Part shown: piece after piece, positions 40,988 to 55,330 of the stretch
Layout: every line of letters starts with the position of its first letter
Position numbering within the stretch: position 1 is the first letter of the stretch
Source of the DNA: Bacillota bacterium
GTDB taxonomy: Bacteria; Bacillota; DTU025
Assembly (NCBI GenBank): GCA_050951805.1
Contig: JBMNJT010000002.1
Location: 1,120,001 to 1,184,000, forward strand
Direction: 5' to 3'
Length of the DNA: 64,000 bases
Program-made: the position numbers and the translations under genes
Notes under the pieces: model-generated
Seen by the model: only the letters and a program-made list of their open reading frames with translations
Told to the model about the DNA's origin: nothing
Database searches by the model: none

Positions 40988-42727
40988 TTGACGCGACCCG
41001 GCCACAAACGAATTGGCGATTATTTGCTCGAGGCGGGGGCGCTCACCGAAGACGAACTCGAAGAGGCGCTCGAGATTCAGCGGCGCACAGGGGAGCGCTT
41101 GGGCAGGGTCCTCGTGAAGTTGGGGCATGTGAGCGAGAGTTCGATTGCAACTGTGATCGAGCGGCAGCTAGGCATTCCCAGAGTGAGCCTTGCGGAGTAT
41201 GTGGTTGCTGATGACGTGATCAAGATTGTTCCCGAAAACATGGCAAGAAGGTACAAGGTTCTTGCTGTCGAAAGGGACGGCAACAAACTGACCCTTGCCA
41301 TGGCTGATCCTCTCAATGTTCTGGCGATTGACGACATAAAGCTGGCTACCGGGTTCGAAGTCAGTCCTGTAGTTGCACCTGAGGACGAAATAGTTCGCGC
41401 GCTAGATCAGTACTACGGTTCTTCTGAGGACCTGGATGAAGTAGTACGCTACCTGGAGAAATACTCTGAAGATGCCATCCGGTTTGCCAGCTACGAAGAG
41501 GAGATAGGCGTTGACCGTCTGCGCGAGCTCGTTGACGAAGCTCCCGTGGTTAGGCTGGTCAACATGATAATCGCCCAGGCTGTGGGAGAACGGGCGTCAG
41601 ATATTCATGTGGAGCCGCATGCCACAGGGGTCAGGGTCAGATACAGAGTAGACGGAATTCTCCGCGAGGTCATGGATCTTCCCAGGGGAAGCCATGCGGC
41701 GATCGCCTCGCGGTTCAAGATAATGAGCAATATGGATATAGCTGAAAGGCGCGTGCCTCAGGACGGCAGAGTTCAGCTGAAGGTGGAGGGCGAAGAGATA
41801 GACCTCAGGGTGTCGACGCTGCCCACCATCTATGGAGAGAAGGTCGTCTGCCGCGTGCTGTTCAGGCGCGGGGCCATGGTCAAACTGGAGCAACTTGGGT
41901 TTCTCCCCGACAACCTGGAGCTTTGGCATCGGGCGCTTTCTTGCCCCTATGGCATTATTCTGGTCACGGGCCCCACAGGAAGCGGGAAGACGCAGACGTT
42001 GTATGCATCGCTGAACCAGTTGAACTCGGTTGAGAAGAACATAATCACTATAGAGGATCCTGTGGAGTTCAGGCTTGACGGGATAAATCAGGTGCAGACG
42101 AATCCCAAGGCGGGCCTGACTTTTGCTTCAGGGCTCAGATCGATGCTGAGACAGGACCCCGACATCATAATGGTGGGAGAGATCCGGGATCGCGATACCG
42201 CCGAGATCGCAGTTAATGCGGCTCTCACGGGCCACCTGGTCCTCTCGACGCTCCACACAAATGACGCGCCGGGCGCAACTGTGCGTTTAGTGGATATGGG
42301 GGCTGAGCCGTTTTTGGTCGCGTCATCTTTGATATGCGTATTATCGCAAAGGCTTGTCCGCAAGGTTTGCACGCACTGTAGGGAAGACTATGTCCCCGAC
42401 GACGAGGAGTGGGGCAGGTGGGTCAGGATGACGCGTGGGCTTTCAGATGAATCCGGCTTGGGGCTCCCTCGCCGCCTTGTGCGCGGGAAAGGGTGTCGCC
42501 AGTGCGGCAACACGGGGTACCGGGGACGGACGGCAATACATGAGATCATGATGGTGACGGAGCCCATACGGGAGCTAGTGTCGGGCAACGCTTCCAGTGA
42601 CGTTGTGGCGGAAGTCGCCAGGGAGCAGGGGATGAGAAGGCTCATCGAGGATGGTGCGGACAAGGTCCGAATGGGGATTACTACTTTGGACGAGGTTATG
42701 AGGGTGGCGGCCGGGTCGGAAGTCTAG
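40988..42727 (+). CDS. pilB: Type IV pilus assembly ATPase PilB (GspE family)
   Basis: N-terminal RIGDYLL/RLGRVLV (MshEN-like), ASDIHVEP, GPTGSGKT, LRQDPD..MVGEIRD, tetracysteine motif. Confidence 0.92.
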   Translation: MTRPGHKRIGDYLLEAGALTEDELEEALEIQRRTGERLGRVLVKLGHVSESSIATVIERQLGIPRVSLAEYVVADDVIKIVPENMARRYKVLAVERDGNKLTLAMADPLNVLAIDDIKLATGFEVSPVVAPEDEIVRALDQYYGSSEDLDEVVRYLEKYSEDAIRFASYEEEIGVDRLRELVDEAPVVRLVNMIIAQAVGERASDIHVEPHATGVRVRYRVDGILREVMDLPRGSHAAIASRFKIMSNMDIAERRVPQDGRVQLKVEGEEIDLRVSTLPTIYGEKVVCRVLFRRGAMVKLEQLGFLPDNLELWHRALSCPYGIILVTGPTGSGKTQTLYASLNQLNSVEKNIITIEDPVEFRLDGINQVQTNPKAGLTFASGLRSMLRQDPDIIMVGEIRDRDTAEIAVNAALTGHLVLSTLHTNDAPGATVRLVDMGAEPFLVASSLICVLSQRLVRKVCTHCREDYVPDDEEWGRWVRMTRGLSDESGLGLPRRLVRGKGCRQCGNTGYRGRTAIHEIMMVTEPIRELVSGNASSDVVAEVAREQGMRRLIEDGADKVRMGITTLDEVMRVAAGSEV

Positions 42728-42781: not shown

Positions 42782-43873
42782 GTGACTGATAGCTTGAAGA
42801 TAGACGGATTGCTTATGGAGGCGGTAAATCTCGGGGCTTCAGACCTTCACCTCACTACAGGGCTTCCTCCAATGGTGAGGGTGAGCGGAGCTTTGAAAGC
42901 CCTGGAAGGGCATCTTCCACTCAAACCGGCTGATACTCGCGAAATGATGTACAGCATCATGAAGCCGGACATTCGGGAGAGGTATGAGGCGGCGGGAGAG
43001 GTCGACTTCTCCCACGGTATGCCGGGGGTTGCCAGGTTCAGGGTGAACGCTTATACGCAGCGTGGCTCTGTGGGGGCAGCGTTCAGGGTCATTCCAACAA
43101 GGATCAGGTCCTTGGAGGAACTTGGCCTTCCGCCTGTGGTGAAGACGTTTGCCGACAAGACCAGGGGGATGGTGCTGGTTACCGGTCCCACGGGAAGCGG
43201 AAAGTCGACGACCCTGGCCTCTCTCATTGACATAATCAATTCGGAGCGGGCGTGCCACGTGATCACCTTGGAGGACCCCATAGAGTACCTTCACAAGCAC
43301 CGAAAGAGCATGATCAACCAGAGGGAAGTGGGGACGGACACCAAGTCTTTTGCGGCGGCGCTCAGGGCTGCCCTCAGGGAGGATCCTGATGTTATCCTCG
43401 TGGGGGAGATGCGGGATCTGGAAACGACTTCTATCGCTCTCACAGCGGCTGAAACAGGGCACCTTGTATTTGCCACGCTGCACACAAACGACACGGTGCA
43501 GACTGTGGACAGGATCATTGACCAGTACCCTCCCCACCAGCAGCAGCAGGTGAGGGTTCAGCTTGCGGCGGTACTGCAGGGAGTGGTATCCCAGATTCTG
43601 CTGCCCCGGGCTGATGGCCAGGGAAGGATCGTGGCGGTGGAGGTTCTAGTGGCGAACCCCGCTGTGCGCAACCTTATTCGCGAGGGGAAGACCCATCAGA
43701 TTTATTCAGTGCTTCAGACAGGCGCAAAACAAGGGATGATAAGCCTCGACATGTACCTCGTAGATATGGCGAAACGTGGGATCATTACGTACGATGATGC
43801 GCTGAGCCATGCGACGAACCCTGATGAGATGAGGCGGCTCGGTCAATTCGCTCAGCCGACGATGAGGCTGTAG
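42782..43873 (+). CDS. pilT: Type IV pilus retraction ATPase
   Basis: ASDLHL, GPTGSGKSTT, ALREDPD, AETGHLV..TLHT, AVRNLIRE motif. Confidence 0.95.
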   Translation: MTDSLKIDGLLMEAVNLGASDLHLTTGLPPMVRVSGALKALEGHLPLKPADTREMMYSIMKPDIRERYEAAGEVDFSHGMPGVARFRVNAYTQRGSVGAAFRVIPTRIRSLEELGLPPVVKTFADKTRGMVLVTGPTGSGKSTTLASLIDIINSERACHVITLEDPIEYLHKHRKSMINQREVGTDTKSFAAALRAALREDPDVILVGEMRDLETTSIALTAAETGHLVFATLHTNDTVQTVDRIIDQYPPHQQQQVRVQLAAVLQGVVSQILLPRADGQGRIVAVEVLVANPAVRNLIREGKTHQIYSVLQTGAKQGMISLDMYLVDMAKRGIITYDDALSHATNPDEMRRLGQFAQPTMRL

Positions 43874-43891: not shown

Positions 43892-45127
43892 GTGGCAAGT
43901 CTCTCTTGGTCGTATCGTGGGCGCGACACGAGCGGCCGGGTGGTTGAGGGCGTTATGGAGGCGGAAAACGCCGAAGTAGTTGCCGAACGCCTTCGGTCGC
44001 AGGGCTACATTCCTGTGATGATAACTCAGGCGAGGCGATCGGTGTTTGCAGGGGATGCGACGACTGCTTCAGATAGGAAGGCCCAGGCTGCGACGAGCCT
44101 CGACACGATGCAGCTTTCGTTGATTTCGCGTCAGATGGCCACTATGGTGGCTGCCGGGATTCCTCTGGTCCAAACATTGGCCATCCTCTCACAACAGATC
44201 GAGGATCCACGCATCGCCGAGCTCATCAGCGAAGTGAGGCGGAGCGTTGAGTCGGGTGAGACTTTTGCGGCGTCTTTAGCCAAACACCCAGGATGCTTCC
44301 CACCGCTCTTTGCGCACATGGTGGAGGCGGGGGAAGCGTCGGGAACTTTGGACATAGTGATGAGCCGCGTGGCCAACTACTACGAGCAACAAGTGAAGAT
44401 CCGAAGCCAGATAAAGAATGCGTTGGTTTATCCGATAATACTTGTAGCAGTGGCTTTTGTGGTAATCATGATTCTTATGGCGTTCGTGTTGCCCACGTTC
44501 ATCGACATGTTCGAGGGGTTCGACATGGAGCTGCCGTGGGTTACCAGGGTCGTATTCGGGTATGGGCAGAGCGTGCAACGCGCGTGGTACCTCCATTTTG
44601 GAATCCCGACTGTTGTGATTTTCTGGTTTGTGAGCTATGTGAAGGGGTCGGGGAAAAGCTGGTGGGATCATACGGTGCTGAGGCTGAAGGTGTCTGGCCC
44701 GATAGTCAGAAAGAGTCAGACGGCCCAGTTTGCGCGGACTTTTGCCATGCTCACCCAGAGCGGTGTGCCTATGTTGCAATCTCTTGACATTCTTGAAAGA
44801 TTGTCAGATAATGCCGTAGTCAGGGAGACAGTGGAAGCATCGAAGGTCTCCGTCCGCGATGGTGCCGGACTTGCCAGACCTCTCAGACAATCGCAAATAT
44901 TCCCACCGATGCTTGCACACATGGTCGCAGTTGGCGAGGAGACCGGAGACCTCGATGGAATGCTCAACAAGACAGCCGACTTCTTCGAACAGGAAGTTGA
45001 GTACGAGATCCAACGAGTCACGACTGCAATAGAGCCCGTCATGACTCTGATAATCGGGTTCTTCGTGGCGCTCATCGTGGCATCGGTGATGATTCCCATG
45101 TTCAGCATGGCGAGCTTTGGGATTTAG
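43892..45127 (+). CDS. pilC: Type IV pilus platform protein PilC (GspF family)
   Basis: RQMATMVAAGIPL, AGEASGTLD, ALVYP, VGEETGDLD, IEP repeats. Confidence 0.93.
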   Translation: MASLSWSYRGRDTSGRVVEGVMEAENAEVVAERLRSQGYIPVMITQARRSVFAGDATTASDRKAQAATSLDTMQLSLISRQMATMVAAGIPLVQTLAILSQQIEDPRIAELISEVRRSVESGETFAASLAKHPGCFPPLFAHMVEAGEASGTLDIVMSRVANYYEQQVKIRSQIKNALVYPIILVAVAFVVIMILMAFVLPTFIDMFEGFDMELPWVTRVVFGYGQSVQRAWYLHFGIPTVVIFWFVSYVKGSGKSWWDHTVLRLKVSGPIVRKSQTAQFARTFAMLTQSGVPMLQSLDILERLSDNAVVRETVEASKVSVRDGAGLARPLRQSQIFPPMLAHMVAVGEETGDLDGMLNKTADFFEQEVEYEIQRVTTAIEPVMTLIIGFFVALIVASVMIPMFSMASFGI

Positions 45128-45368: not shown

Positions 45369-45773
45369 ATGAAGAGGGATCAACGCGGTTTTACACTGAT
45401 GGAACTGATGATCGTTATCGTGATCATCGGTGTGTTGGCGGCGATTGGAGTGCCGGCGTACAAGAACTACGTCACCAAGGCCAAAACGGCAGCTTGTGAG
45501 TCAAACCGGCGTACCATAGCTACTGCGCTTGGTATGTACTATGCGGAGGAAGGCGAGTATCCTATCAGTCTTGGCGACTCCAAGTTGGCTGAGTATGTAT
45601 CCAATATTGCGGAGATCTCGAAGTGTCCAGCCAACAAAGATATATCATATGAGCTTGAGGTTTCAGGCGATGAGGTGAGCGGGTGGAATGTAGCCATCAC
45701 TTGTGGCGAAGAAGGGCATGAACCCTTCATAGTATCAGGCACATATGGGACTGATGTTACTAGTGCTCCATAA
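45369..45773 (+). CDS. pilA: Type IV pilin 1
   Basis: Class III signal [25 protein letters not shown]; cysteines in C-terminal domain. Confidence 0.85.
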
Positions 45774-46614
45774 TGAGAGTCGTCTGACTCGGGGCACCTA
45801 TCGTCTAGTCTAGTCGGTGCATTTGTGCTCAATCACGGCCTTGCCGCTCTCAACAGAGCGCGGCAAGGCCAGTCGTGAGCGGTTCGGCGACGGATCTCAA
45901 GCCTCACAGTATGCGACTTGGGTCTGTTGCCATGGAACTTGTGCAGTTCGTGCAGTTCAATGCACTAGTAGTGCTCCTGTCCTCCATGGCAGGGGTGCTT
46001 AGCTTTGGTCTGAGCTTGGTAGCTTCTTTCATACTGATTTGTTTAGCCGTTCCGATTGCGCCGGTGCGGTCTCACGTAGCGGTTGTAGCTGCCGTTGGCC
46101 GTCGATGTGTAGGGTGCTTCCCCTTGATCTTTGTTTTTCTACCCATCATCTTTACGGAGATGCCTCAACACTGGCCTTGTACATACTTGCGTCACTTTTC
46201 GCGGCAACGCTATCGGTGTTACTTAGTCATTAATGGTTTCGACTATCTCTCAATGTCATGATACGGTTCTTTGGATCATGTAGGAGCACTGAGGATGCTG
46301 CCCATGTCGAGAATGGCGGGCTTTGCGATGTAGTCTAGGAGATAATGGAGGAGAGGTCCAACAATATTGGCGATGGTGAGAGCTCACGTCCTTAGGGAGC
46401 GGTTCAGGTCGAAATGAGGTTTGAGGGCAACATGTTATTCTCACGCGGTTCGGTGTCCCCGATGGCTGCAAAGTCTGCAGCTAGATACGGTTGCCGCACA
46501 TTGTGCTGGTAGAGCATCCGAGTTGTGCAGAGTCGATGAGTGTCGATGAGCTTGGAGTTCCAGCTGTTCAGAGTCTTGATATGAGGGTACGAAGTTGAAG
46601 GGAGGATCTTGCCA

Positions 46615-47016
46615 GTGAGAAATGATCAACGCGGTTTTACATTGATGGAACTGATGATCGTGGTCGTGATCATCGGGGTGTTATCGGCGATTGGGGTGCC
46701 GGCGTATAAGAACTACGTAATTCAGGCCAAAGAGTCCGCCTGTGATGCAAACAGGCGGACTATTGCAACTGCGCTTGGCATGTATTATGCGGAGACTGGC
46801 AAATACCCATCTGAGGAAGATGGCTTTGCCGCCTTGTCCCCGTATGTATCGAATATCGAGGCTATAGCCAAGTGTCCAGCTGATAAGTCGGACTATACCC
46901 TTTCTTCTTCAGGCAGTGAGGAAGTCGGATGGCTTGTGACCATCAACTGCAAGGAACACGGGAAGTTTACAGTAGCAGGAAAACTGTCGGAGGTTGAACT
47001 ACCCAACCAACCCTAG
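46615..47016 (+). CDS. pilA: Type IV pilin 2 (paralog of pilin 1)
   Basis: [25 protein letters not shown]; GTG 46615 aligns with the pilin 1 ATG and shares the GAAGGGAGGATC RBS. Confidence 0.85.
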   Translation: MRNDQRGFTLMELMIVVVIIGVLSAIGVPAYKNYVIQAKESACDANRRTIATALGMYYAETGKYPSEEDGFAALSPYVSNIEAIAKCPADKSDYTLSSSGSEEVGWLVTINCKEHGKFTVAGKLSEVELPNQP

Positions 47017-47191: not shown

Positions 47192-47944
47192 TTGCCGTAT
47201 GCAATCCCGCTAGTCTCATTCATACTCGGCCTGGTGATCGGCAGCTTTCTCAATGTCTGCATCTGCCGTCTGCCGTATGGGGGCTCCATTGTGAGCCCGG
47301 GTTCGGCGTGTCCGAATTGCGGCAGGCCCCTTGCCCCGCGTGACCTGGTCCCGGTAGCAAGCTACGTGGCGCTTGGAGGCAAGTGCAGATACTGCGGGGA
47401 GCCGATCTCGATCCAGTACCCCATCGTGGAGCTTGCGACGGGGTTGCTTTATGCTGCAATCGTATGGACCTATGGCCTCACATTCGAAAGCCTCTCACTC
47501 CTCATCTTCGTCTCCCTGATCATCATCTGTGCCGGGACTGATTTCAATACCGGTCTCATACTCAATTCCGTCACGTTTCCCGGCGTTGCCATTGGAGTTG
47601 CCATGTCATTCGTGGTTCCAAGCATGACACCTTTGGAGTCCCTGCTGGGCCTGCTGGTCTCAGGAGGCGTCGTCTGGATCATGTACGCCGCCACCCGGGG
47701 CCGCGGAATGGGCGGGGGAGACGTCAAGTTCATGGCGATGGTTGGGGCCTTCTTAGGCTGGGACAGGGGCCTGTTGACACTTTTCCTCGGGGCACTGATC
47801 GGCTCGATGGTGGGGATAGCCCGGATCGTCTCCGGGAAGCAGGAGAGGCGCGATCCCATTCCATTCGGACCGTTCTTGTCCATAGGGGCTATCATTTCTG
47901 TCTTCTTCGGCGCGAAGATGCTTGGGTTTCTCCATCTATGGTAG
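47192..47944 (+). CDS. pilD: Prepilin peptidase
   Basis: GSFLNVCICRLP, CPNC/CRYC zinc site, GMGGGDVK, IPFGPFL. Confidence 0.95.
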   Translation: MPYAIPLVSFILGLVIGSFLNVCICRLPYGGSIVSPGSACPNCGRPLAPRDLVPVASYVALGGKCRYCGEPISIQYPIVELATGLLYAAIVWTYGLTFESLSLLIFVSLIIICAGTDFNTGLILNSVTFPGVAIGVAMSFVVPSMTPLESLLGLLVSGGVVWIMYAATRGRGMGGGDVKFMAMVGAFLGWDRGLLTLFLGALIGSMVGIARIVSGKQERRDPIPFGPFLSIGAIISVFFGAKMLGFLHLW

Positions 47945-48009: not shown

Positions 48010-49137
48010 GTGCCGTTGCGCCTCTTTTCCAGACAGAGCAGGAGTATGATCGGAGTAGATATCGGCACCAGCCGCGTCAAGGTTGTGGAACTTGTGGGCC
48101 GCGGCGAGGGTGTTGAACTAACCCGCGCCGCCATCGAGCTTGCGCCGCCCGGGGCCATCCGGGACGGCCAGATAGTCTCGCCTGAACTGGTGGCAGAGGT
48201 TATCCAGCGGGGCTTTGCTAAGGGTCGGATTAAGCCTGGCGAAGTAGTCGCTGCAATAGCTGGTCGGGGAGTAGTCGTAAGGCATGTGAAGTTTCCTAGG
48301 ATGCCCGAAGAGGAACTGAGAGAGGCGATCAAGTGGGAAGGCCAACAGCACATCCCCATGCCCATTGAGGAGGCCGTAGTCGATTTCGAGATCATAGACG
48401 ACTACTCGGGTTCTGATGAGGCCGAGATGGAAGTGATGCTTGTTGCGGCCCCGCGGAAGCTGGTGGAATCGCATGTACAAGCTATCGAGCTGGCTGGACT
48501 TACACCCATTGCCATAGATGTTCAGCCATTTGCTGTCCTCAGGGCTTTAAGATATGAGCCTGGGGATAAGACGCTCCATCCCAATGGTCGGTCAGCAACG
48601 GCATATGTCGACATCGGCGCCGGCACTACCGATATACTCATCGCCCAAGGCGAAAGACTCAGGTTCACGAGAATCGTCCCCTTAGGCGGCAACACCTTCA
48701 CCAACGCTATCGCTGAGACGTTGGGAGTTAGCTTCGAGGAAGCAGAGGCAATAAAGATTGCAAAGGGAAGGGTTTGTGTCGACGGTTGCGGCGAACCTTG
48801 TGCAGACAGGGAGGAACAGGACATCTCGGATGCAATTGCGAATGTCGCCGCAGACGTTGCTATGGATATAAGACGTTCCCTCGACTACCACGACCTGCAA
48901 CTTGAGGGAAGAAGCCAGGATGCCGGAGTGACTAGGGTAGTTCTCACAGGTGGTGCATCAGTAATGGAAGGCCTTGACTGCTACCTCGAGAGCGAGCTGG
49001 GTCTTGCGACTGTGATGGGCGACCCACTGAAGAGCATCCTTGTAAACCAGAGGCTAGCCAACAAGGAGGAACTGTCGAGACTTGGCCCCATGTTCGCTGT
49101 GGGTATAGGCCTTGCCCTTCGGGAGGTGGTTGACTGA
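48010..49137 (+). CDS. pilM: Type IV pilus assembly protein PilM
   Basis: GVDIGTSRVKVVEL, actin-like DIGAGTT, LTGGAS, AVGIGLALR. Confidence 0.92.
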   Translation: MPLRLFSRQSRSMIGVDIGTSRVKVVELVGRGEGVELTRAAIELAPPGAIRDGQIVSPELVAEVIQRGFAKGRIKPGEVVAAIAGRGVVVRHVKFPRMPEEELREAIKWEGQQHIPMPIEEAVVDFEIIDDYSGSDEAEMEVMLVAAPRKLVESHVQAIELAGLTPIAIDVQPFAVLRALRYEPGDKTLHPNGRSATAYVDIGAGTTDILIAQGERLRFTRIVPLGGNTFTNAIAETLGVSFEEAEAIKIAKGRVCVDGCGEPCADREEQDISDAIANVAADVAMDIRRSLDYHDLQLEGRSQDAGVTRVVLTGGASVMEGLDCYLESELGLATVMGDPLKSILVNQRLANKEELSRLGPMFAVGIGLALREVVD

Positions 49138-49682
49138 TGTCAAAGATCAACCTGCTTCCGCAGCGGGAACCGGAAGAATCCGGGATAAGCCCGGCCAAGC
49201 TCGGACTGATAATCGTCCTTGAGATTGCCATAGTGGGCGCTTCAGCGCTCTATGCCTACAGGCACTTCTTCATACAGCAATTGGAGGAGGATATCGATAG
49301 GATAGAGGCCCAAATTGGAGCGATTCGGGCAGATGTCGAGGCCGTGGAAAAGGTGCAACGGCGAACTGCCGATATCAGGAAACGAATAGATGAAGCTGAA
49401 GCTATCAGCGCTGAGGGCCTCGCATCGGGCCGTGTTATGAGAGAAGTTCGGGACATCATTCCCAGGGACATCTGGCTTTCGTCTCTTTCAATCAACCCCG
49501 ATGGCGGAGTGAGCCTTGCAGGAGACACCTTCTCCATAGAATCAGTGGCCCGCTTTGCACTGGCTATCGAGGATTCGCCCATGTTCGGCGAGGCTCATGT
49601 GGGGTCTGTAAGCTTAGCAGCTGAGGGAGATTACGAGGTGTACGACTTCAACATCGACTGCATGCTTGATGCTCGGAGGTGA
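49137..49682 (+). CDS. pilN: Type IV pilus assembly protein PilN
   Basis: INLLP motif, TM, coiled coil, IPRDIWLSSL. Confidence 0.88.
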   Translation: MSKINLLPQREPEESGISPAKLGLIIVLEIAIVGASALYAYRHFFIQQLEEDIDRIEAQIGAIRADVEAVEKVQRRTADIRKRIDEAEAISAEGLASGRVMREVRDIIPRDIWLSSLSINPDGGVSLAGDTFSIESVARFALAIEDSPMFGEAHVGSVSLAAEGDYEVYDFNIDCMLDARR

Positions 49683-50308
49683 CAGGCATGTCTCTTTCGA
49701 CGGAAGTCAACCCCAAGCAGGCCAAGACATTTATCGTGCTGATTATATTGGCTGCGGCGGGCCTCCTTTATATGTACGTGTTCGCCCCCCAAGCGCGAAA
49801 ACTGGCGGACGCCAGAACGCGTCTTGACGAGGCCAACTCCGTGCTGACAGTAGACTTGGCCAAGATTCGAGGCGCCGGGAGGTCCGAAGAAGAACTTGAA
49901 CTTGCCATGGCCCAACTGGAGAACTTTGAGCGCCTTATTCCCCGAGAAGACAGAATACACTACGTCCTCCGCGATATGGAGTCAGTCGCCCTGTCCAACC
50001 ATGTTGCCATTGACAGCCTCACCATCGCCTCCGGCATGCCGCGGGGGCAGTACGTCGAGATACCAATGACCTTGAACGTTTCCGGAACATACAACAACAT
50101 AATCGGCTTTCTGGACGGAATTGCAGACATTGAGCGGGTCATGAATGTGCACAGCCTTTCTTTTGGAGGGGGGCGAGAACTCTGGCGTGAAGGCGGTGGA
50201 ACCCAGGATCGAGCGGTCCGTTCGCCAGATGCTTATATATCTTCAACAATTCAGGTAACGACATACGCCAGGCCGAGGGGTGATGATCAGGTTGGCGCTG
50301 GATCTTAG
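49679..50308 (+). CDS. pilO: Type IV pilus assembly protein PilO
   Basis: TM plus coiled coil, YVEIPMTLNVSGTYNNIIGFLDGI..IERVMNV. Confidence 0.85.
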   Translation: MTGMSLSTEVNPKQAKTFIVLIILAAAGLLYMYVFAPQARKLADARTRLDEANSVLTVDLAKIRGAGRSEEELELAMAQLENFERLIPREDRIHYVLRDMESVALSNHVAIDSLTIASGMPRGQYVEIPMTLNVSGTYNNIIGFLDGIADIERVMNVHSLSFGGGRELWREGGGTQDRAVRSPDAYISSTIQVTTYARPRGDDQVGAGS

Positions 50309-50906
50309 CAGAGAATCCCGGAACGAGTGGCCGTCTCCAGACGGCGAAACCGAAGCTAGAAAGAGGAAATACAGATGGACCGCCCTCATAGTTGCGCTGT
50401 TGCTCGTCGCGTCATTTTCCGGCTACATGTGGTTCCTGAAGAATCGAAAGCCGGATCGGTATCCTGGTGGGTCTGACGTGGTTGCCGGAGGGCGTGTTGC
50501 CGCTAGGCTCTCGGCTCTGCTCGACCAGAGCCACGAGTATGGTTGGTCCAGAGTGGAAGAGGAGCTTTCGCCGGTGGGGCATGGTCGTTGGGACCCGTTC
50601 AAGACTTTGCTTCCCGATCCGGTGCAGATAGTCCCCGTGGAACCGAGGACGCCGATTCCAGCTTTGCCGGAGCCCGAAGATTCAGCCCCTTGTGAACCGG
50701 CTTTGCCCAAGGTTCGGCTGACCGGAGTCTTAAAGTCGGGCGATAGGGCGATTGCATTGCTTTTAGTGGACGGGAGAAGCGTGATAACGCGCGTCGGAGA
50801 CGCGCCCTTCGATGGCGCAGAGGTCCGCTCTATCGACGACAAGTCCATAACGATTTCGTTTGGCGGGACTGATTTCACTTACCAACTGGGAGGTGAGCGG
50901 AGATGA
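50280..50906 (+). CDS. PilP/GspC-like pilus alignment protein (TM-anchored)
   Basis: TM helix, GRWDPF motif, Pro-rich linker, LTGVL...ALL..DG beta domain; between pilO and secretin. Confidence 0.65.
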   Translation: MMIRLALDLSRESRNEWPSPDGETEARKRKYRWTALIVALLLVASFSGYMWFLKNRKPDRYPGGSDVVAGGRVAARLSALLDQSHEYGWSRVEEELSPVGHGRWDPFKTLLPDPVQIVPVEPRTPIPALPEPEDSAPCEPALPKVRLTGVLKSGDRAIALLLVDGRSVITRVGDAPFDGAEVRSIDDKSITISFGGTDFTYQLGGERR

Positions 50907-53900
50907 GAAATAGGGGATTGGGAAGGCGAGCGGCGGCAGCATTGGCTCTCATCTTGTGCCTGGCCTTCGCTGGGCAGGCTGCATTTGGCGCCTTGGAGCG
51001 CCGCGTCGATCTTGACCTGGTAGATGCTGAACTTGCAGACGTGTTTCGCGCCCTAGCGGAACTGGGAGATATGAATATAGTGCTCGACCCCGCGGTACGC
51101 GGAACCCTCACAATTCGCCTTCATGGCCTTGCAGTCGAAGACGCGCTTAGGCTCGTCGCCTACACTACCGGCGTGAAATACAGGGTCGAAGGCTCTACAA
51201 TGATCGTCCTTCCGCCGGGCGCTGTTTCAACCAGCCTGGAGCCGCTGGGCATCGAGAAGTTCTCGCTCACCTATGCCAGAACGACTGACGTTATTGGCCC
51301 TGCAAGGCTTGTTGCAGGCGGAGCGAAACTGGAGGCGGATGAGCGGACCAACTCCATCATCGCCTGTGGGTCAGCCGAAGAGCTCAGGGCCATAGGTGAT
51401 GTACTGAGGATGCTTGACGTTCCTGTCCAGTTGCCTCCGGAGGCCATCGCTTCGCTTGCCGATGCTGGGTTGTCTTCGGGCCGCGAGTCTCTCGAGATTA
51501 TTAGGCTCCAACATGCCCCCGCCCAGGGGGTGGCCGACCTGTTGGCCTTGGTGGTTCCTGCCGACAGGATGCGGGTGGATTCACGCACGAACACCATAGT
51601 GGTCATCATTGACGAGGCCTCCCGTGAAAGAGCGATGAAGATAGTATCCGAAGTGGACGTGGCAGAGCCCCCTGATGATGGAGGTTTTTCGAGTGTTCCC
51701 GGGAAGGGTGTAAACCTGCAGACTGAGGCAGTCGAGGCCGAGACGGTGAAAGTGATCAAGCTTGCGTGGGCCCCCGTGGACAGGGTCCGTGAAGCCCTCA
51801 GTGTCATCATCGACCTTTCCAAGGTTGGAATGGATTCACGCACAAATTCGCTCATTGTAAATGCGACGCCTGAACAGATAGCCCGGATTGAAGAGGTTGT
51901 GACTCTTCTCGATGTCGCTGTGGTAGCCGGGGAAAAGCAGCCTGCACCAGCCCATGATGGTATACATATGTTCAAGCTCGAGCACGCATCAGCCAAATCA
52001 GTGCGAGACGTCCTTACCATGATCCTGCCCCCTGAAAAAATGCAGGTGGACGAGAGGACGAACACCGTGGTGATAATGGCGGATGATGATACTTGCGCTC
52101 GAGTTGTAGAACTTGTTGAGACTTTGGATGTAGAAACTGCGGCCGACCAGGCACTCATCGGGGAAGAGAAGATCGTTGAGACTATCCCCTTGGCCCATGC
52201 CTCTTTGGATGCAATTCGAGATGCCCTGGCTTTGGTGGTGCCGAAAGAAGCTGTCGTAATCGATGAGAGGACGCGGTCGGTAATCGTGAAAGGCACCCGG
52301 TCGCAGCGTGAGCGTGCCCGCGAGATCGCAGCCCTTCTTGACGTGCCGGACGGGCCTTTACATGAGACAGGAGCCGCGACAGATCCCTCTTCGGAGCCGA
52401 CAACCAACATCCGCGCATTCAGGCTTCGTGAGGCCGACCCTGAATCCGTTAAAGAGGCCCTCTCGATGGTGATGCCGAAGACTTCTATTTATGTGGACGC
52501 GCGCACCAAATCTGTATTGGTCGTCGGGCTCTTAGACGAACTGGCCCGTGCAGCGGAGATCGTTGCCCTTATCGACCAACCATCTCGTGATGACGTCAGT
52601 GTGGGTTTGGCAAAAGGCGAGTCGGAAATCCTGGAAATGAGGGTGATCCGGCTGGTTCATGCCCCGGCTGCGAAAATTCGGGATATGATTGCTCCGATAA
52701 TGCCGGAGATCAGGATTGCCGCGGACGAGCGTAGCAATTCATTGCTGATAGTTGCTTCCCCGTCTTTGCAGGAGCGCGCAGCTAGCGTGGTGACGGCTCT
52801 CGACATAGAGGTTCTCCAGCCCGAGCAGGGCACTGAGCCTGCAGCGCCGCGCGATCCCGAGGTGACCCGGGTGGTTACGCTTGCCCATGCCGAAGCCGCA
52901 GAGGTTCGTGAGGCTTTGGCCCCGATAGTGCCGATTTCCAGCATCACTGTGGATCCCCGTACGAATTCCTTGGTGATCGTGGCGGCGCAGTCGAAGATGG
53001 ACAGGGCGCTGGACGTTGTGGCGAAACTGGATGTGGAGACTGCGGCGAGTTCCGAGAGCCTCCCTGAGGAGGCGGCGCACGTGTCCGAAAGCCCGAAAGC
53101 CGAGGTGGTGAGGTTGAAATATGCATCGCCATCGAAGGTTCGGGATGCCCTGGCGCCTACGATTCCCGTATCGAGGATAAGCGTGGACGAGCGAACCGGG
53201 TCGCTCGTTATCGTGGGAACAGAGGCCGAGATGACACAGGCCCTTGCGATTATAGACAAGCTCGACATAGAGGTTCTCCAGCCCGAGCAGGGCACCGAGC
53301 CTGCAGCGCCGCGTGATCCCGAGGTGACCCGGGTGGTGACGCTTGCCCATGCCGAAGCCGCAGAGGTTCGTGAGGCTTTGGCCCCGATAGTGCCGATCTC
53401 CAGCATCACTGTGGATCCCCGTACGAATTCCTTGGTGATCGTGGCGGCGCAGTCGAGGATGGACAGGGCGCTGGACGTTGTGGCAAAACTGGATGTGGAG
53501 ACTGTGGCGAGTTCCGAGAGCCTCCCTGAGGAGGCGGCGCACGTGTCCGAAAGCCCGAAAGCCGAGGTGGTGAGGTTGAAATATGCATCGCCATCGAAGG
53601 TTCGGGATGCCCTGGCGCCTACGATTCCCGTATCGAGGATAAGCGTGGACGAGCGAACCGGGTCGCTCGTTATCGTGGGAACAGAGGCCGAGATGACACA
53701 GGCCCTTGCGATTATAGACAAGCTCGACATAGAGGTTCTCCAGCCCGAGCAGGGCACCGAGCCTGCAGCGCCGCGTGATCCCGAGGTGACCCGGGTGGTG
53801 ATGCTTGCCCATGCCGAAGCCGCAGAGGTTCGTGAGGCTTTGGCCCCGATAGTGCCGATCTCCAGCATCACTGTGGATCCCCGTACGAATTCCTTGGTGA

Positions 53901-55330
53901 TCGTGGCGGCACAGTCGAGGATGGACAGGGCCCTTGAAGTCGTGGGGAAGCTCGACATAGAAGTTGGCACTGCCGAGGAGGAACATGACTTGGCGCAGGC
54001 GGAGCGGCCTGAGGTCGTGGCCTACAGGCTTGCATACGCGAGCGCAGAGTCGCTGCGCCCTGCTTTGGGTCTCGTTGCGTCCCCTTCCGACTTGGAAGTT
54101 GACGAAAGGACAAATACTTTGATCGTCAGGGCCGTGCCTTCGGTGCAGGAACGTGTAGCAGAGCTCGTGGCGTCCCTCGACATACCTGTGGAGGTGCCGA
54201 AAGCCCCCGAGCCCGGGCTCGAGATATTGCGGATTTTCAGACTGAAGCATGCCTCGCCGTCGGAGATGAAATCGCTTTTGGGCTTGATTGCGCCAAAGGC
54301 CAAGATGCAGCCGGATGACCGGACAGGTTCTCTCGTGGTTCTCGCTCCCGCTGAAACCATCCCTGAATTGGAGGCGCTCATCGAGAGCCTGGACCTTCCA
54401 TCAGTGGCGTCAAAGGACGAGCCTGACCCGGTGGTGACCAGGATATACAGGCTCAACTACGCATCGCCTTCCGACATCGAGCGGGCCTTGGGAAGCTTCG
54501 TAGAAGGAACCATAGGATCAGATGCCCGAACATCCTCAGTCGTGGTAAGAGCGGCCCAGTCCGAACAGGCGAAGGCGCTCGAGCTCATAGACTCCCTCGA
54601 TTCAGAACTTCCCCAAGTGCTGATCGAGGCGAGGCTGGAGGAACTAACGGGAGACGCAGCCAGGAAACTGGGTATCGACTGGACCTTTTCAGGCCTCTCA
54701 TTCGGCGAGAATGCCTTTGGCCAGTGGGTGAGTGTTAGCATGGACTTCCTTGCCAACCTTACCGCCTTGGAGGAATCGGGACATGCAACGCTAATAAGCA
54801 GGCAGCATACTTTCACCGTTGACGGCAAGACAGGGAAGATCCTCATAGGCGACAGGATCCCTATCATAACCCAGGAAGTCCAGGACGGGCAGGCCGTGAA
54901 TAGAGTGGAGTTCATAAACGCAGGCATCGAGCTTGCGATAACTCCCAAAGTGAGCAGCGACGGGACTATAACTGCCACGGTCAAGCCGGTGATCAGCTCG
55001 ATAGTGGGGTGGACTCCTCAGAACTACCCGCAGATCAGGACTAGAGAGCTGGAAACTGTAGTTTCCCTTAAGAGTGGACAGACTGCTGTCATCGGCGGAC
55101 TCCTACATCGCGACGAGGTGGAGGGGATGGCAAAGGTGCCGCTTTTGGGAGATATCCCGCTTCTGGGAGAGTTGTTCAAGAAGCGGACTACGACTACAAA
55201 CACCACAGAGCTGGTGATGTTGATCACGGCGTACCAGGTCAACCCCGGGCAGCGGTCGGCAGTGGGACCTGCGCAGGAAGGCGACTCATTCCCGATAGTA
55301 GTGGAAGATGCGCTGGGCGGAAAGAAGTGA
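50903..55330 (+). CDS. pilQ: Giant secretin (PilQ/GspD family) with N0 and ~15 Secretin_N domains
   Basis: Signal peptide, N0/STN domain, 15 repeats of L.HA...DxRTNS..V...LD, C-terminal PQVLIEA...GIELAITPKV...KVPLLGDIPLLGELFK secretin domain. Confidence 0.9.
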   Translation: MRNRGLGRRAAAALALILCLAFAGQAAFGALERRVDLDLVDAELADVFRALAELGDMNIVLDPAVRGTLTIRLHGLAVEDALRLVAYTTGVKYRVEGSTMIVLPPGAVSTSLEPLGIEKFSLTYARTTDVIGPARLVAGGAKLEADERTNSIIACGSAEELRAIGDVLRMLDVPVQLPPEAIASLADAGLSSGRESLEIIRLQHAPAQGVADLLALVVPADRMRVDSRTNTIVVIIDEASRERAMKIVSEVDVAEPPDDGGFSSVPGKGVNLQTEAVEAETVKVIKLAWAPVDRVREALSVIIDLSKVGMDSRTNSLIVNATPEQIARIEEVVTLLDVAVVAGEKQPAPAHDGIHMFKLEHASAKSVRDVLTMILPPEKMQVDERTNTVVIMADDDTCARVVELVETLDVETAADQALIGEEKIVETIPLAHASLDAIRDALALVVPKEAVVIDERTRSVIVKGTRSQRERAREIAALLDVPDGPLHETGAATDPSSEPTTNIRAFRLREADPESVKEALSMVMPKTSIYVDARTKSVLVVGLLDELARAAEIVALIDQPSRDDVSVGLAKGESEILEMRVIRLVHAPAAKIRDMIAPIMPEIRIAADERSNSLLIVASPSLQERAASVVTALDIEVLQPEQGTEPAAPRDPEVTRVVTLAHAEAAEVREALAPIVPISSITVDPRTNSLVIVAAQSKMDRALDVVAKLDVETAASSESLPEEAAHVSESPKAEVVRLKYASPSKVRDALAPTIPVSRISVDERTGSLVIVGTEAEMTQALAIIDKLDIEVLQPEQGTEPAAPRDPEVTRVVTLAHAEAAEVREALAPIVPISSITVDPRTNSLVIVAAQSRMDRALDVVAKLDVETVASSESLPEEAAHVSESPKAEVVRLKYASPSKVRDALAPTIPVSRISVDERTGSLVIVGTEAEMTQALAIIDKLDIEVLQPEQGTEPAAPRDPEVTRVVMLAHAEAAEVREALAPIVPISSITVDPRTNSLVIVAAQSRMDRALEVVGKLDIEVGTAEEEHDLAQAERPEVVAYRLAYASAESLRPALGLVASPSDLEVDERTNTLIVRAVPSVQERVAELVASLDIPVEVPKAPEPGLEILRIFRLKHASPSEMKSLLGLIAPKAKMQPDDRTGSLVVLAPAETIPELEALIESLDLPSVASKDEPDPVVTRIYRLNYASPSDIERALGSFVEGTIGSDARTSSVVVRAAQSEQAKALELIDSLDSELPQVLIEARLEELTGDAARKLGIDWTFSGLSFGENAFGQWVSVSMDFLANLTALEESGHATLISRQHTFTVDGKTGKILIGDRIPIITQEVQDGQAVNRVEFINAGIELAITPKVSSDGTITATVKPVISSIVGWTPQNYPQIRTRELETVVSLKSGQTAVIGGLLHRDEVEGMAKVPLLGDIPLLGELFKKRTTTTNTTELVMLITAYQVNPGQRSAVGPAQEGDSFPIVVEDALGGKK
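52799..53931 (+). repeat. Near-identical 462-bp in-frame tandem repeat (~2.45 copies) within the secretin gene
   Basis: Units start with CTCGACATAGAGGTTCTCCAGCCCGAG at 52799, 53261 and 53723. Confidence 0.95.

Follow-up and report, generated by a model that had tools for sequence, protein, structure and literature searches.

A PilQ-type secretin with 15 Secretin_N domains in an uncultured, endospore-forming Bacillota lineage, and its possible fit to a wide cell envelope

The subject of this analysis is a gene for a giant secretin in the genome of an uncultured Bacillota bacterium (assembly GCA_050951805.1, contig JBMNJT010000002.1, positions 1,120,001 to 1,184,000). The whole 64,000-nucleotide stretch that was analysed is referred to below as the window. 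The gene encodes a protein of 1475 amino acids (aa), in which a signal peptide and an N0 domain are followed by 15 Secretin_N domains and a single compact beta-barrel. We consider it probable that the product is the outer-membrane PilQ of a retractile type IVa pilus machine, and that its 16 tiers form a long conduit fitting a wide envelope.

Architecture of the secretin

The features of the gene, by position in the window, are as follows:
50903..55330, + strand, giant PilQ-type secretin gene; open reading frame (ORF) with an ATG start, 1475 aa
50903..50992, + strand, predicted Sec-type signal peptide, about residues 1-30; basic N-region, hydrophobic core and AFG/A cleavage-like site, from inspection of the translation
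51011..51214, + strand, N0/STN domain, about residues 37-104; from sub-cut-off Pfam matches and PilQ structure matches
51242..54628, + strand, array of 15 Secretin_N ring-building domains, residues 114-1242; from Pfam, a motif scan and a repeat hidden Markov model (HMM)
52799..53945, + strand, recent tandem duplication of a 462-base-pair (bp) two-domain unit, 2.5 copies, domains 8-12; Tandem Repeats Finder (TRF) score 2203
54764..55234, + strand, secretin beta-barrel domain, residues 1288-1444; from PF00263 and Foldseek matches to GspD, InvG and PilQ

Pfam finds PF03958 (Secretin_N) in 15 separate stretches of the 1475-aa protein (E 1.9e-147, 480.2 bits) and PF00263 (Secretin) at residues 1288-1444 (E 1e-39, 136.3 bits against a cut-off of 27.5). 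The count of 15 is also returned by the motif scan and by an HMM made from the protein's own repeats. The two N0/STN families remain under their curated cut-offs (PF21305, 23.7 against 27, residues 37-73; PF07660, 21.5 against 28.4, residues 57-104). For residues 30-181 there are matches in the N0-N1 region of PilQ proteins of known structure (9x0w, E 1.6e-10; 6ve2, 2.4e-10; 6w6m, 9.7e-9; 4ar0/4av2, about 2.7e-5, with the weak end of the range at 2.8e-5), and matches to GspD are weaker. At the level of sequence, these matches confirm an N0 domain, which resembles that of PilQ. AMIN (PF11741) is absent from the 14 families that Pfam finds in the protein at E <= 0.1. Thermus PilQ is not known to have AMIN domains either, and in proteobacterial PilQ they are accessory and not defining. 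The linkers between Secretin_N domains measure 2-17 residues.

An AlphaFold2 monomer model of residues 1030-1475, based on a 23-row alignment, has a mean predicted local distance difference test score (pLDDT) of 69.3. Domains 13-15 are modelled as three beta-alpha-beta-beta-alpha modules with block pLDDT mostly of 80-92, and the pLDDT of the barrel is only moderate. The PDB fold matches of this model at E <= 0.001 are secretins, with ExeD at the top (6i1x_A, 3.8e-21) and PilQ among them (6w6m_A, 2.1e-13). Foldseek gives a probability of 1.00 for the matches to GspD, InvG and PilQ.

A preliminary description of this DNA, made from its letters, had proposed a signal peptide, N0, 15 Secretin_N repeats, a compact barrel and no AMIN domains, and Pfam, motif, HMM and PDB matches, together with inspection of the N-terminus for the signal peptide, bear this anatomy out. 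[quoted passage not shown] The acidic, Pro-containing linkers that it described are likewise found: on inspection, Pro, Glu and Asp abound in them.

The secretin gene closes a pilus operon

The secretin gene is the last gene of a pilB-T-C-pilin-D-M-N-O-P-Q operon, whose other members are:
40988..42727, + strand, assembly ATPase PilB with MshEN domain; PF00437, PF05157; TIGR02538 at 648.8, just below the cut-off of 675.65
42782..43873, + strand, retraction ATPase PilT; TIGR01420 at 497.7 against a cut-off of 319.1
43892..45127, + strand, platform protein PilC; two PF00482 matches
45369..45773, + strand, type IV pilin; N_methyl
46609..47016, + strand, type IV pilin; N_methyl, T2SSG
47192..47944, + strand, prepilin peptidase PilD; PF06750, PF01478
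48010..49137, + strand, PilM; PF11104, E 3e-53; TIGR01175 at 249.9 against a cut-off of 133
49137..49682, + strand, PilN; PF05137, E 7.8e-11
49679..50308, + strand, PilO; PF04350, E 1e-14
50280..50906, + strand, distant PilP homologue, 208 aa; from a family profile against Neisseria PilP

The PilP-like ORF lies between pilO and the secretin gene, and a copy is also found directly 5′ of the secretin in relatives. Its product shows a transmembrane (TM) helix, the conserved motif GRWDPF and, after a linker rich in Pro, a small beta domain at the C-terminus. Neither Pfam nor NCBIfam has a match for it, and a single-sequence search of the PDB gave nothing relevant. A profile of the family matches Neisseria PilP (2ivw_A, E 3.3e-4; 4av2_M, E 7.9e-4), and the nearest Atlas cluster is auto-named PilP (0.93), which we take as a lead. 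With PilM, PilN, PilO and PilP accompanied by PilB, PilT, PilC, PilD and pilins, the set makes up a full type IVa machine of the pilMNOPQ kind that includes a retraction ATPase. The order of the operon is conserved in four related loci (L006, L009, L012 and L013). Between the two pilin genes lies a 128-aa ORF (45875-46261, + strand) with no Pfam or NCBIfam match, which could encode a divergent minor pilin or be spurious.

Downstream (3′) of the operon follow a Xaa-Pro peptidase gene, efp and spoIIIAA/AB/AE, the spoIIIA genes lying 2.4 kb downstream. The whole order, including the peptidase, efp and spoIIIA, is kept in relatives from different families. Presumably the same Xaa-Pro peptidase, efp, spoIIIA order holds in Bacillus subtilis. 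Because the order is conserved across the class, the adjacency to spoIIIA is shared synteny and not a sign of a functional link.

These neighbours bear on whether the long channel serves mainly another role, be it DNA uptake, protein secretion or a sporulation-linked conduit suggested by the adjacent spoIIIA genes. The secretin exceeds the NCBIfam cut-off for GspD (TIGR02517, 393.1 against 351.35, in eight matched stretches, probably inflated by the N-domain repeats) as well as that for PilQ (TIGR02515, 315.8 against 284.35), and spoIIIAA, AB and AE are close by; furthermore, Thermus PilQ is described in excerpts of its paper as bifunctional, serving both pili and DNA uptake (PMC5745081). However, its N0-N1 region is closer to PilQ than to GspD, and the operon holds PilM, PilN, PilO, PilP, PilT and pilins and not GspL, GspM or GspC. 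The conserved synteny gives no argument for a sporulation link, and DNA uptake through the same pilus would be compatible with a PilQ of a type IVa machine. A main role elsewhere is in our judgement improbable. The preliminary description's suggestion of a conduit for a role such as DNA uptake keeps some room on this account, within an operon that is an ordinary one for a retractile type IVa pilus.

Block duplication and the number of domains

Part of the array is young. The 462-bp unit, with 98% DNA identity over its 2.5 copies, holds 5 of the 15 Secretin_N domains. Compared pairwise, domains 8, 10 and 12 share 84-97% identity, and domains 9 and 11 do not differ at all (100%); the median over all Secretin_N domain pairs of the protein is 31%. 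A comparable event appears elsewhere in the class: genome G019 has 20 domains through a duplicated five-domain block, with four pairs 100% identical and one 85%, and its congener G020 has 15. Within the host's own genus, the host genome has 15 domains against 13 in G004. Domain number would be tuned over evolutionary time via tandem duplication of two- or five-domain blocks.

A repeat of this kind raises the possibility that the true number of domains is 13 or 11 and that 15 reflects mis-assembly of the 462-bp repeat. The near-identity of the copies and the 13 domains of the same-genus G004 would fit such an error. Logan short-read contigs (four runs, four independent studies) match the gene's unique parts at >=99% identity, yet they are fragmented within the array, and none spans it. 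Because the contigs break inside the array, short reads neither confirm nor refute the copy number, and higher word depth on repeat-internal contigs does not count as copy number. Against an error, the copies differ by about 2% and are therefore distinguishable, and the host assembly has 8 contigs, with the gene within one of 1.56 Mb. Among the short-read contigs of the four studies, no joint skips 462 or 924 bases. G004 is itself a 190-contig assembly in which the repeat could be collapsed instead. We regard an inflated count as very unlikely, and the conclusion would be unaffected even with 11-13 domains. One short-read joint, from 53504 to 55133, was set aside as likely spurious, having only 25 letters on its shorter side.

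Distribution in the class and phylum

The host's GTDB class has 21 species genomes, 19 of which have secretin matches at E <= 1e-20 and 13 of which have open frames of at least 1200 aa. Five further genomes (G005, G007, G011, G017 and G018) carry fragments or a split secretin gene. No secretin match was found in G003 and G015, which are 72% and 77% complete. Fourteen loci were fetched, and 13 of them are giant, with 11, 11, 12, 13, 13, 13, 13, 13, 14, 14, 15, 16 and 20 domains; the lower counts come from fragmented assemblies, in which repeats could be collapsed. In the fourteenth, from G012, only a short form was found, a 486-aa secretin. In G017 (G017:C13:349800-355200, L042) two frames, of 1119 and 379 aa, make up the giant orthologue; a frameshift, a gene split or faulty assembly may be the cause.

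Of 151 genomes sampled across the phylum, 30 contain a match to the secretin. All four members of the class among these 30 have frames of at least 1200 aa (1262-1477 aa), against 0/26 of the others, whose frames are of ~380-900 aa, with one of 1038 aa. The giant secretin is a lineage trait of the class, and the rest of the phylum sample is ordinary.

How unusual is the domain count?

The N-domain rings of secretins are thought to bridge the periplasm, and characterised secretins in the literature searched all have six rings or fewer. Excerpts of the Thermus PilQ paper call its six rings ‘unusual’ and the protein ‘one of the largest ... characterized so far’ (PMC5745081). Deinococcus radiodurans DR_0774 is given, in the part of the source available, as N0-N3 plus a flange domain, and the portion of Denise et al. 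available states that diderm Firmicutes secretins ‘lacked distinctive domain architecture’ (PMC6668835). No paper on secretins with more than six rings was found in the literature searched, with subscription-only papers outside its scope.

Sequence databases give another picture. Relatives of the secretin carry 9-20 domains, and a word-indexed search returned Planctomycetota/Verrucomicrobia secretins of 2000-2550 aa with 9-23 domains by the repeat HMM. A census of 1.84 billion representative proteins with a repeat profile matched 13,478 of them at E <= 0.001, of which 625 reach E <= 1e-30; among the 150 best of the 625, most are 2000-5532 aa long with 20-65 matched stretches. By a stricter local HMM count, 137 of 143 newly returned proteins have at least 15 domains, and 116 of the 137 have a detectable barrel; this HMM undercounts distant proteins (maximum 37, against 65 stretches by the census profile). 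Since the best census matches mostly hold 20-65 domains, 15 is not exceptional among database secretins. The novelty hinted at in the preliminary description is therefore weaker than implied, and the census, with its 625 hits, shows such counts to be commonplace in databases, though the literature searched describes no secretin above six rings.

The host and its envelope genes

The host genome (G000; 2.75 Mb, 97% complete, 8 contigs) belongs to a lineage of uncultured endospore-forming Bacillota from anaerobic digesters. Near-identical copies of this DNA turn up in digester, sludge, bioreactor, wastewater and landfill samples, in 18 runs belonging to 11 studies. Related secretin loci in named genomes all come from metagenome-assembled genomes (15/15), 14 of which are labelled Bacillota, Firmicutes or Clostridia. 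The fifteenth, a 1751-bp contig labelled Verrucomicrobia bacterium ADurb.Bin122 (L016), carries a 56%-identical fragment of this Bacillota-type giant secretin and is probably mis-binned.

One cluster of the host genome encodes Omp85/BamA (172.6 bits, with three POTRA domains), Skp, a fused LptF/G, LptC, LptA and LptB. From the BamA, Skp and Lpt genes, we infer that the host has an outer membrane. LpxC, LptD, LpxK and the Kdo-transferase domain (waaA) were not found in this 97%-complete genome. An LpxB-like match is weak and non-specific, and a CsaB-family match is uninformative, as the control also matches in 9 of 14 genomes. The first 353 residues of a 1103-aa protein (G000:C2:699511-702822; L024:5512-8823) match LptF/LptG, and this protein may be a fused or extended LptFG. 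Between lptA and lptB lies an 809-aa ORF that belongs to no family.

A second secretin, of 521 aa with one Secretin_N domain, is encoded elsewhere in the host genome (G000:C3:16438-18003; L028:8439-10004). Its match on C3 (an identical 141.9 bits) was considered as an assembly duplicate, an explanation that was rejected, the protein being a distinct paralogue. Directly after it comes a 2036-aa RHS-repeat protein (L028:10016-16126), and upstream lies an IS21-type transposase/IstB fusion on the minus strand (L028:5822-7309). The 521-aa secretin and the RHS protein may form a dedicated secretin/Rhs toxin pair.

Two candidate SLH-anchored spacers outside the window

Two further host proteins are candidate connectors between the cell wall and an outer membrane:
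G000:C2:711946-715644 (L029:447-4145), outside the window, beside the BamA/Skp/Lpt cluster, spacer 1 (P0122), SlpA/OmpM-like, 1232 aa
G000:C2:1204088-1206475 (L027:2089-4476), ~20 kb downstream of the window, spacer 2, Omp-alpha-like, 795 aa

P0122 has a single N-terminal SLH domain (residues 36-80, 41.4 bits), a Pro-rich linker, a helical region and a C-terminal part. Its stalk comprises ~544-609 helical residues with ten exact 37-residue repeats (motif MAFYDS). Hydrophobic residues recur in the helical region with a period of 3.70 (power 5.06; the highest of 200 shuffles gives 2.44), and residues 322-648 contain no Pro or Gly. DSSP assignment of an AlphaFold2 model places helix at 155-698 with three short breaks, the longest helix having 249 residues. 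At 0.15 nm per residue, the modelled stalk would measure at least ~37 nm for the longest unbroken helix and up to ~82 nm if fully extended. The C-terminal region of ~534 aa is conserved, ends in a terminal Phe and is a putative barrel. Orthologues with stalks of ~420-710 aa are present in 20 of the 21 class genomes.

Spacer 2 has the layout of Omp-alpha: a signal peptide, one SLH domain, ~680 A/E/L-rich helical residues and a C-terminal TM helix. Its rod has a period of 3.6 (power 3.91, against 1.89 for shuffles), and it finds matches in 19 of the 21 class genomes. Among the four SLH matches in the host genome there is no short-stalk OmpM paralogue, and the only other SLH protein of the host has three SLH domains and no barrel. 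In family f56 of the phylum, G072:C7:46014-52154 and matching loci in G113 and G152 carry two tandem SLH-stalk-barrel paralogues of 919-960 aa.

In layout the two proteins resemble known connectors: P0122, with SLH, predicted helical stalk and putative barrel, resembles SlpA/OmpM (SLH, coiled coil and barrel), and spacer 2 has the SLH, coiled coil and TM helix of Omp-alpha. According to excerpts of published work (PMC9388160, with PMC10628300, for SlpA/OmpM/Omp-alpha), the stalk of Veillonella parvula OmpM1 is residues 22-107. The same excerpts of PMC9388160 give a 28-nm coiled coil for D. radiodurans SlpA, matching a 30-nm distance between outer membrane and peptidoglycan, and a 45-nm rod for Thermotoga Omp-alpha. 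Set against the 28-nm SlpA, the 45-nm Omp-alpha and the <90-residue stalk of OmpM1 in these sources, the stalks here have ~544 and ~680 helical residues. The two SLH spacers (~540-680 helical residues) lend independent support to a very wide envelope.

Tube length and envelope width

In the mechanism that we favour, about 12-15 protomers would form a gated barrel in the outer membrane, as in solved secretins, and each N domain would build one ring. The docking site of N0 would be the PilMNO platform's PilP-like protein, anchored in the inner membrane. Together, the 16 tiers would build a ~65-95 nm conduit for the pilus, the length of which would match an unusually wide envelope held by the SLH-stalk-barrel connector and the Omp-alpha-like spacer. 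This length is scaled from two secretins: excerpts of the sources give 35 nm for the barrel and six rings of Thermus PilQ (PMC5745081, PMC4463427) and 35 nm for DR_0774, as an 8.5-nm barrel plus five tiers. At the resulting ~3.5-5.3 nm per tier, 16 tiers and a barrel would come to ~65-95 nm, an estimate of the same order as the extended spacers.

Several points weigh against this account. Ring stacking, the oligomeric state and all nanometre figures are extrapolations by scaling; the P0122 stalk model has low confidence (mean pLDDT 53.9), and its three breaks could be hairpins. NCBIfam alone places the secretin over both the GspD and the PilQ cut-offs. Given the 521-aa paralogue with one Secretin_N domain, not every secretin of the host is long. 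The contrast between the class and the rest of the phylum counts as a single evolutionary event. Within the class, domain count and stalk length show a Spearman correlation of 0.25 (p 0.51, n=9), which is not significant; a post-hoc subset of families f1 and f3 only gives 0.84 (n=6), among kin that are not independent. Finally, long tethers occur with short secretins: family f56 has tethers of 919-960 aa yet secretins of 488-515 aa, and in G012, which has a 1171-aa tether, only the 486-aa secretin was found.

The last two observations also speak for another explanation, in which the protein is a pilus secretin whose N-domain array is no rigid stack matched to envelope width. Domain number would then be loosely constrained, drifting by duplication and loss; the array might be flexible, partly collapsed or a sleeve traversing a thick wall, and a periplasm of ~80 nm would not be required. 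The range of 11-20 domains within one class and the 84-100% identical recent block duplicates in two families are in keeping with such drift. Tube length also need not equal periplasm width, as Thermus PilQ spans ~35 nm of a ~70-nm periplasm in the part of the source available. Nonetheless, short linkers of 2-17 residues favour close stacking, and every complete orthologue counted keeps at least 11 domains. The median identity of ~31% among non-duplicated domains means that most domains are old and retained, and the giant secretin is confined to a class that also has two giant spacers. A loose, drifting array strikes us as unlikely, though a serious contender.

The preliminary description had proposed a tube of much greater length and a very wide periplasm. 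For the stacked PilQ conduit, this proposal is helped by the two SLH spacers, whose ~540-680 helical residues compare with a 28-nm SlpA and a 45-nm Omp-alpha. A long conduit in a wide envelope is plausible, and the proposal stands at that level.

Comparison with known secretins

A close parallel is PilQ of Thermus thermophilus (757 aa; PMC5745081, PMC4463427), likewise the secretin of a type IV pilus, encoded in a pilMNO-(W/P)-Q operon and having an extended stack of beta-alpha-beta-beta-alpha rings across a wide periplasm. The Thermus host is likewise diderm, with SLH-anchored SlpA and no classical lipopolysaccharide. Unlike Thermus PilQ (N0-N5, six rings in all), the protein described here has 15 Secretin_N domains plus N0 in about twice the residues; part of its array comes from recent block duplication, and the bacterium that carries it is an endospore-forming member of the Bacillota.

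Proteobacterial PilQ (Pseudomonas aeruginosa 6ve2/9x0w, Vibrio cholerae 6w6m, Neisseria meningitidis 4av2) provides the best sequence matches for N0-N1 and shares a homologous barrel and the PilP partner family. However, it has AMIN domains and only N0-N1 before the barrel, whereas here AMIN is absent and there are 14 extra N domains. GspD of the type II secretion system (6i1x, 5wq7, 5wq8, 6hcg) gives the best fold matches for the N domains and barrel, and its family TIGR02517 is exceeded. GspD has N0-N3 and works with GspC, GspL, GspM and pseudopilins, in contrast to the pilMNOP genes and PilT retraction ATPase found here. In the giant secretins of Planctomycetota/Verrucomicrobiota, too, a single barrel is preceded by a long tandem array of Secretin_N domains that has grown by block duplication. 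They are 2000-5532 aa long with 20-65 domains and, among the matches listed, 22-28% identical to the present protein, which differs in being PilQ-type, in standing in a full pilus operon and in belonging to the Bacillota.

Significance

This class combines a pilus-type secretin of 11-20 rings with two independent molecular rulers in the same genomes, and the co-occurrence of these rulers makes the relation between machine length and envelope width testable. A bolder picture, which we put forward tentatively and hold to be possible but somewhat doubtful, is of a spore-forming diderm class lacking lipid A, in which two spacers set a distance of ~80-100 nm from outer membrane to wall and the pilus secretin has been stretched to 11-20 rings. 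If true, this would be a toga-like envelope inside the Firmicutes, with a distance between outer membrane and wall that is among the widest in any bacterium, where block duplication keeps the pilus conduit continuous across the ~80-100 nm gap. More broadly, the analysis suggests that this uncultured, digester-dwelling class of Bacillota should be counted with the diderm Firmicutes. Its envelope would unite BamA, Skp and Lpt in the absence of lipid A genes, an SlpA like that of Deinococcus and an Omp-alpha like that of Thermotoga, alongside sporulation genes, a combination that bears on how Terrabacteria kept or lost their outer membranes.

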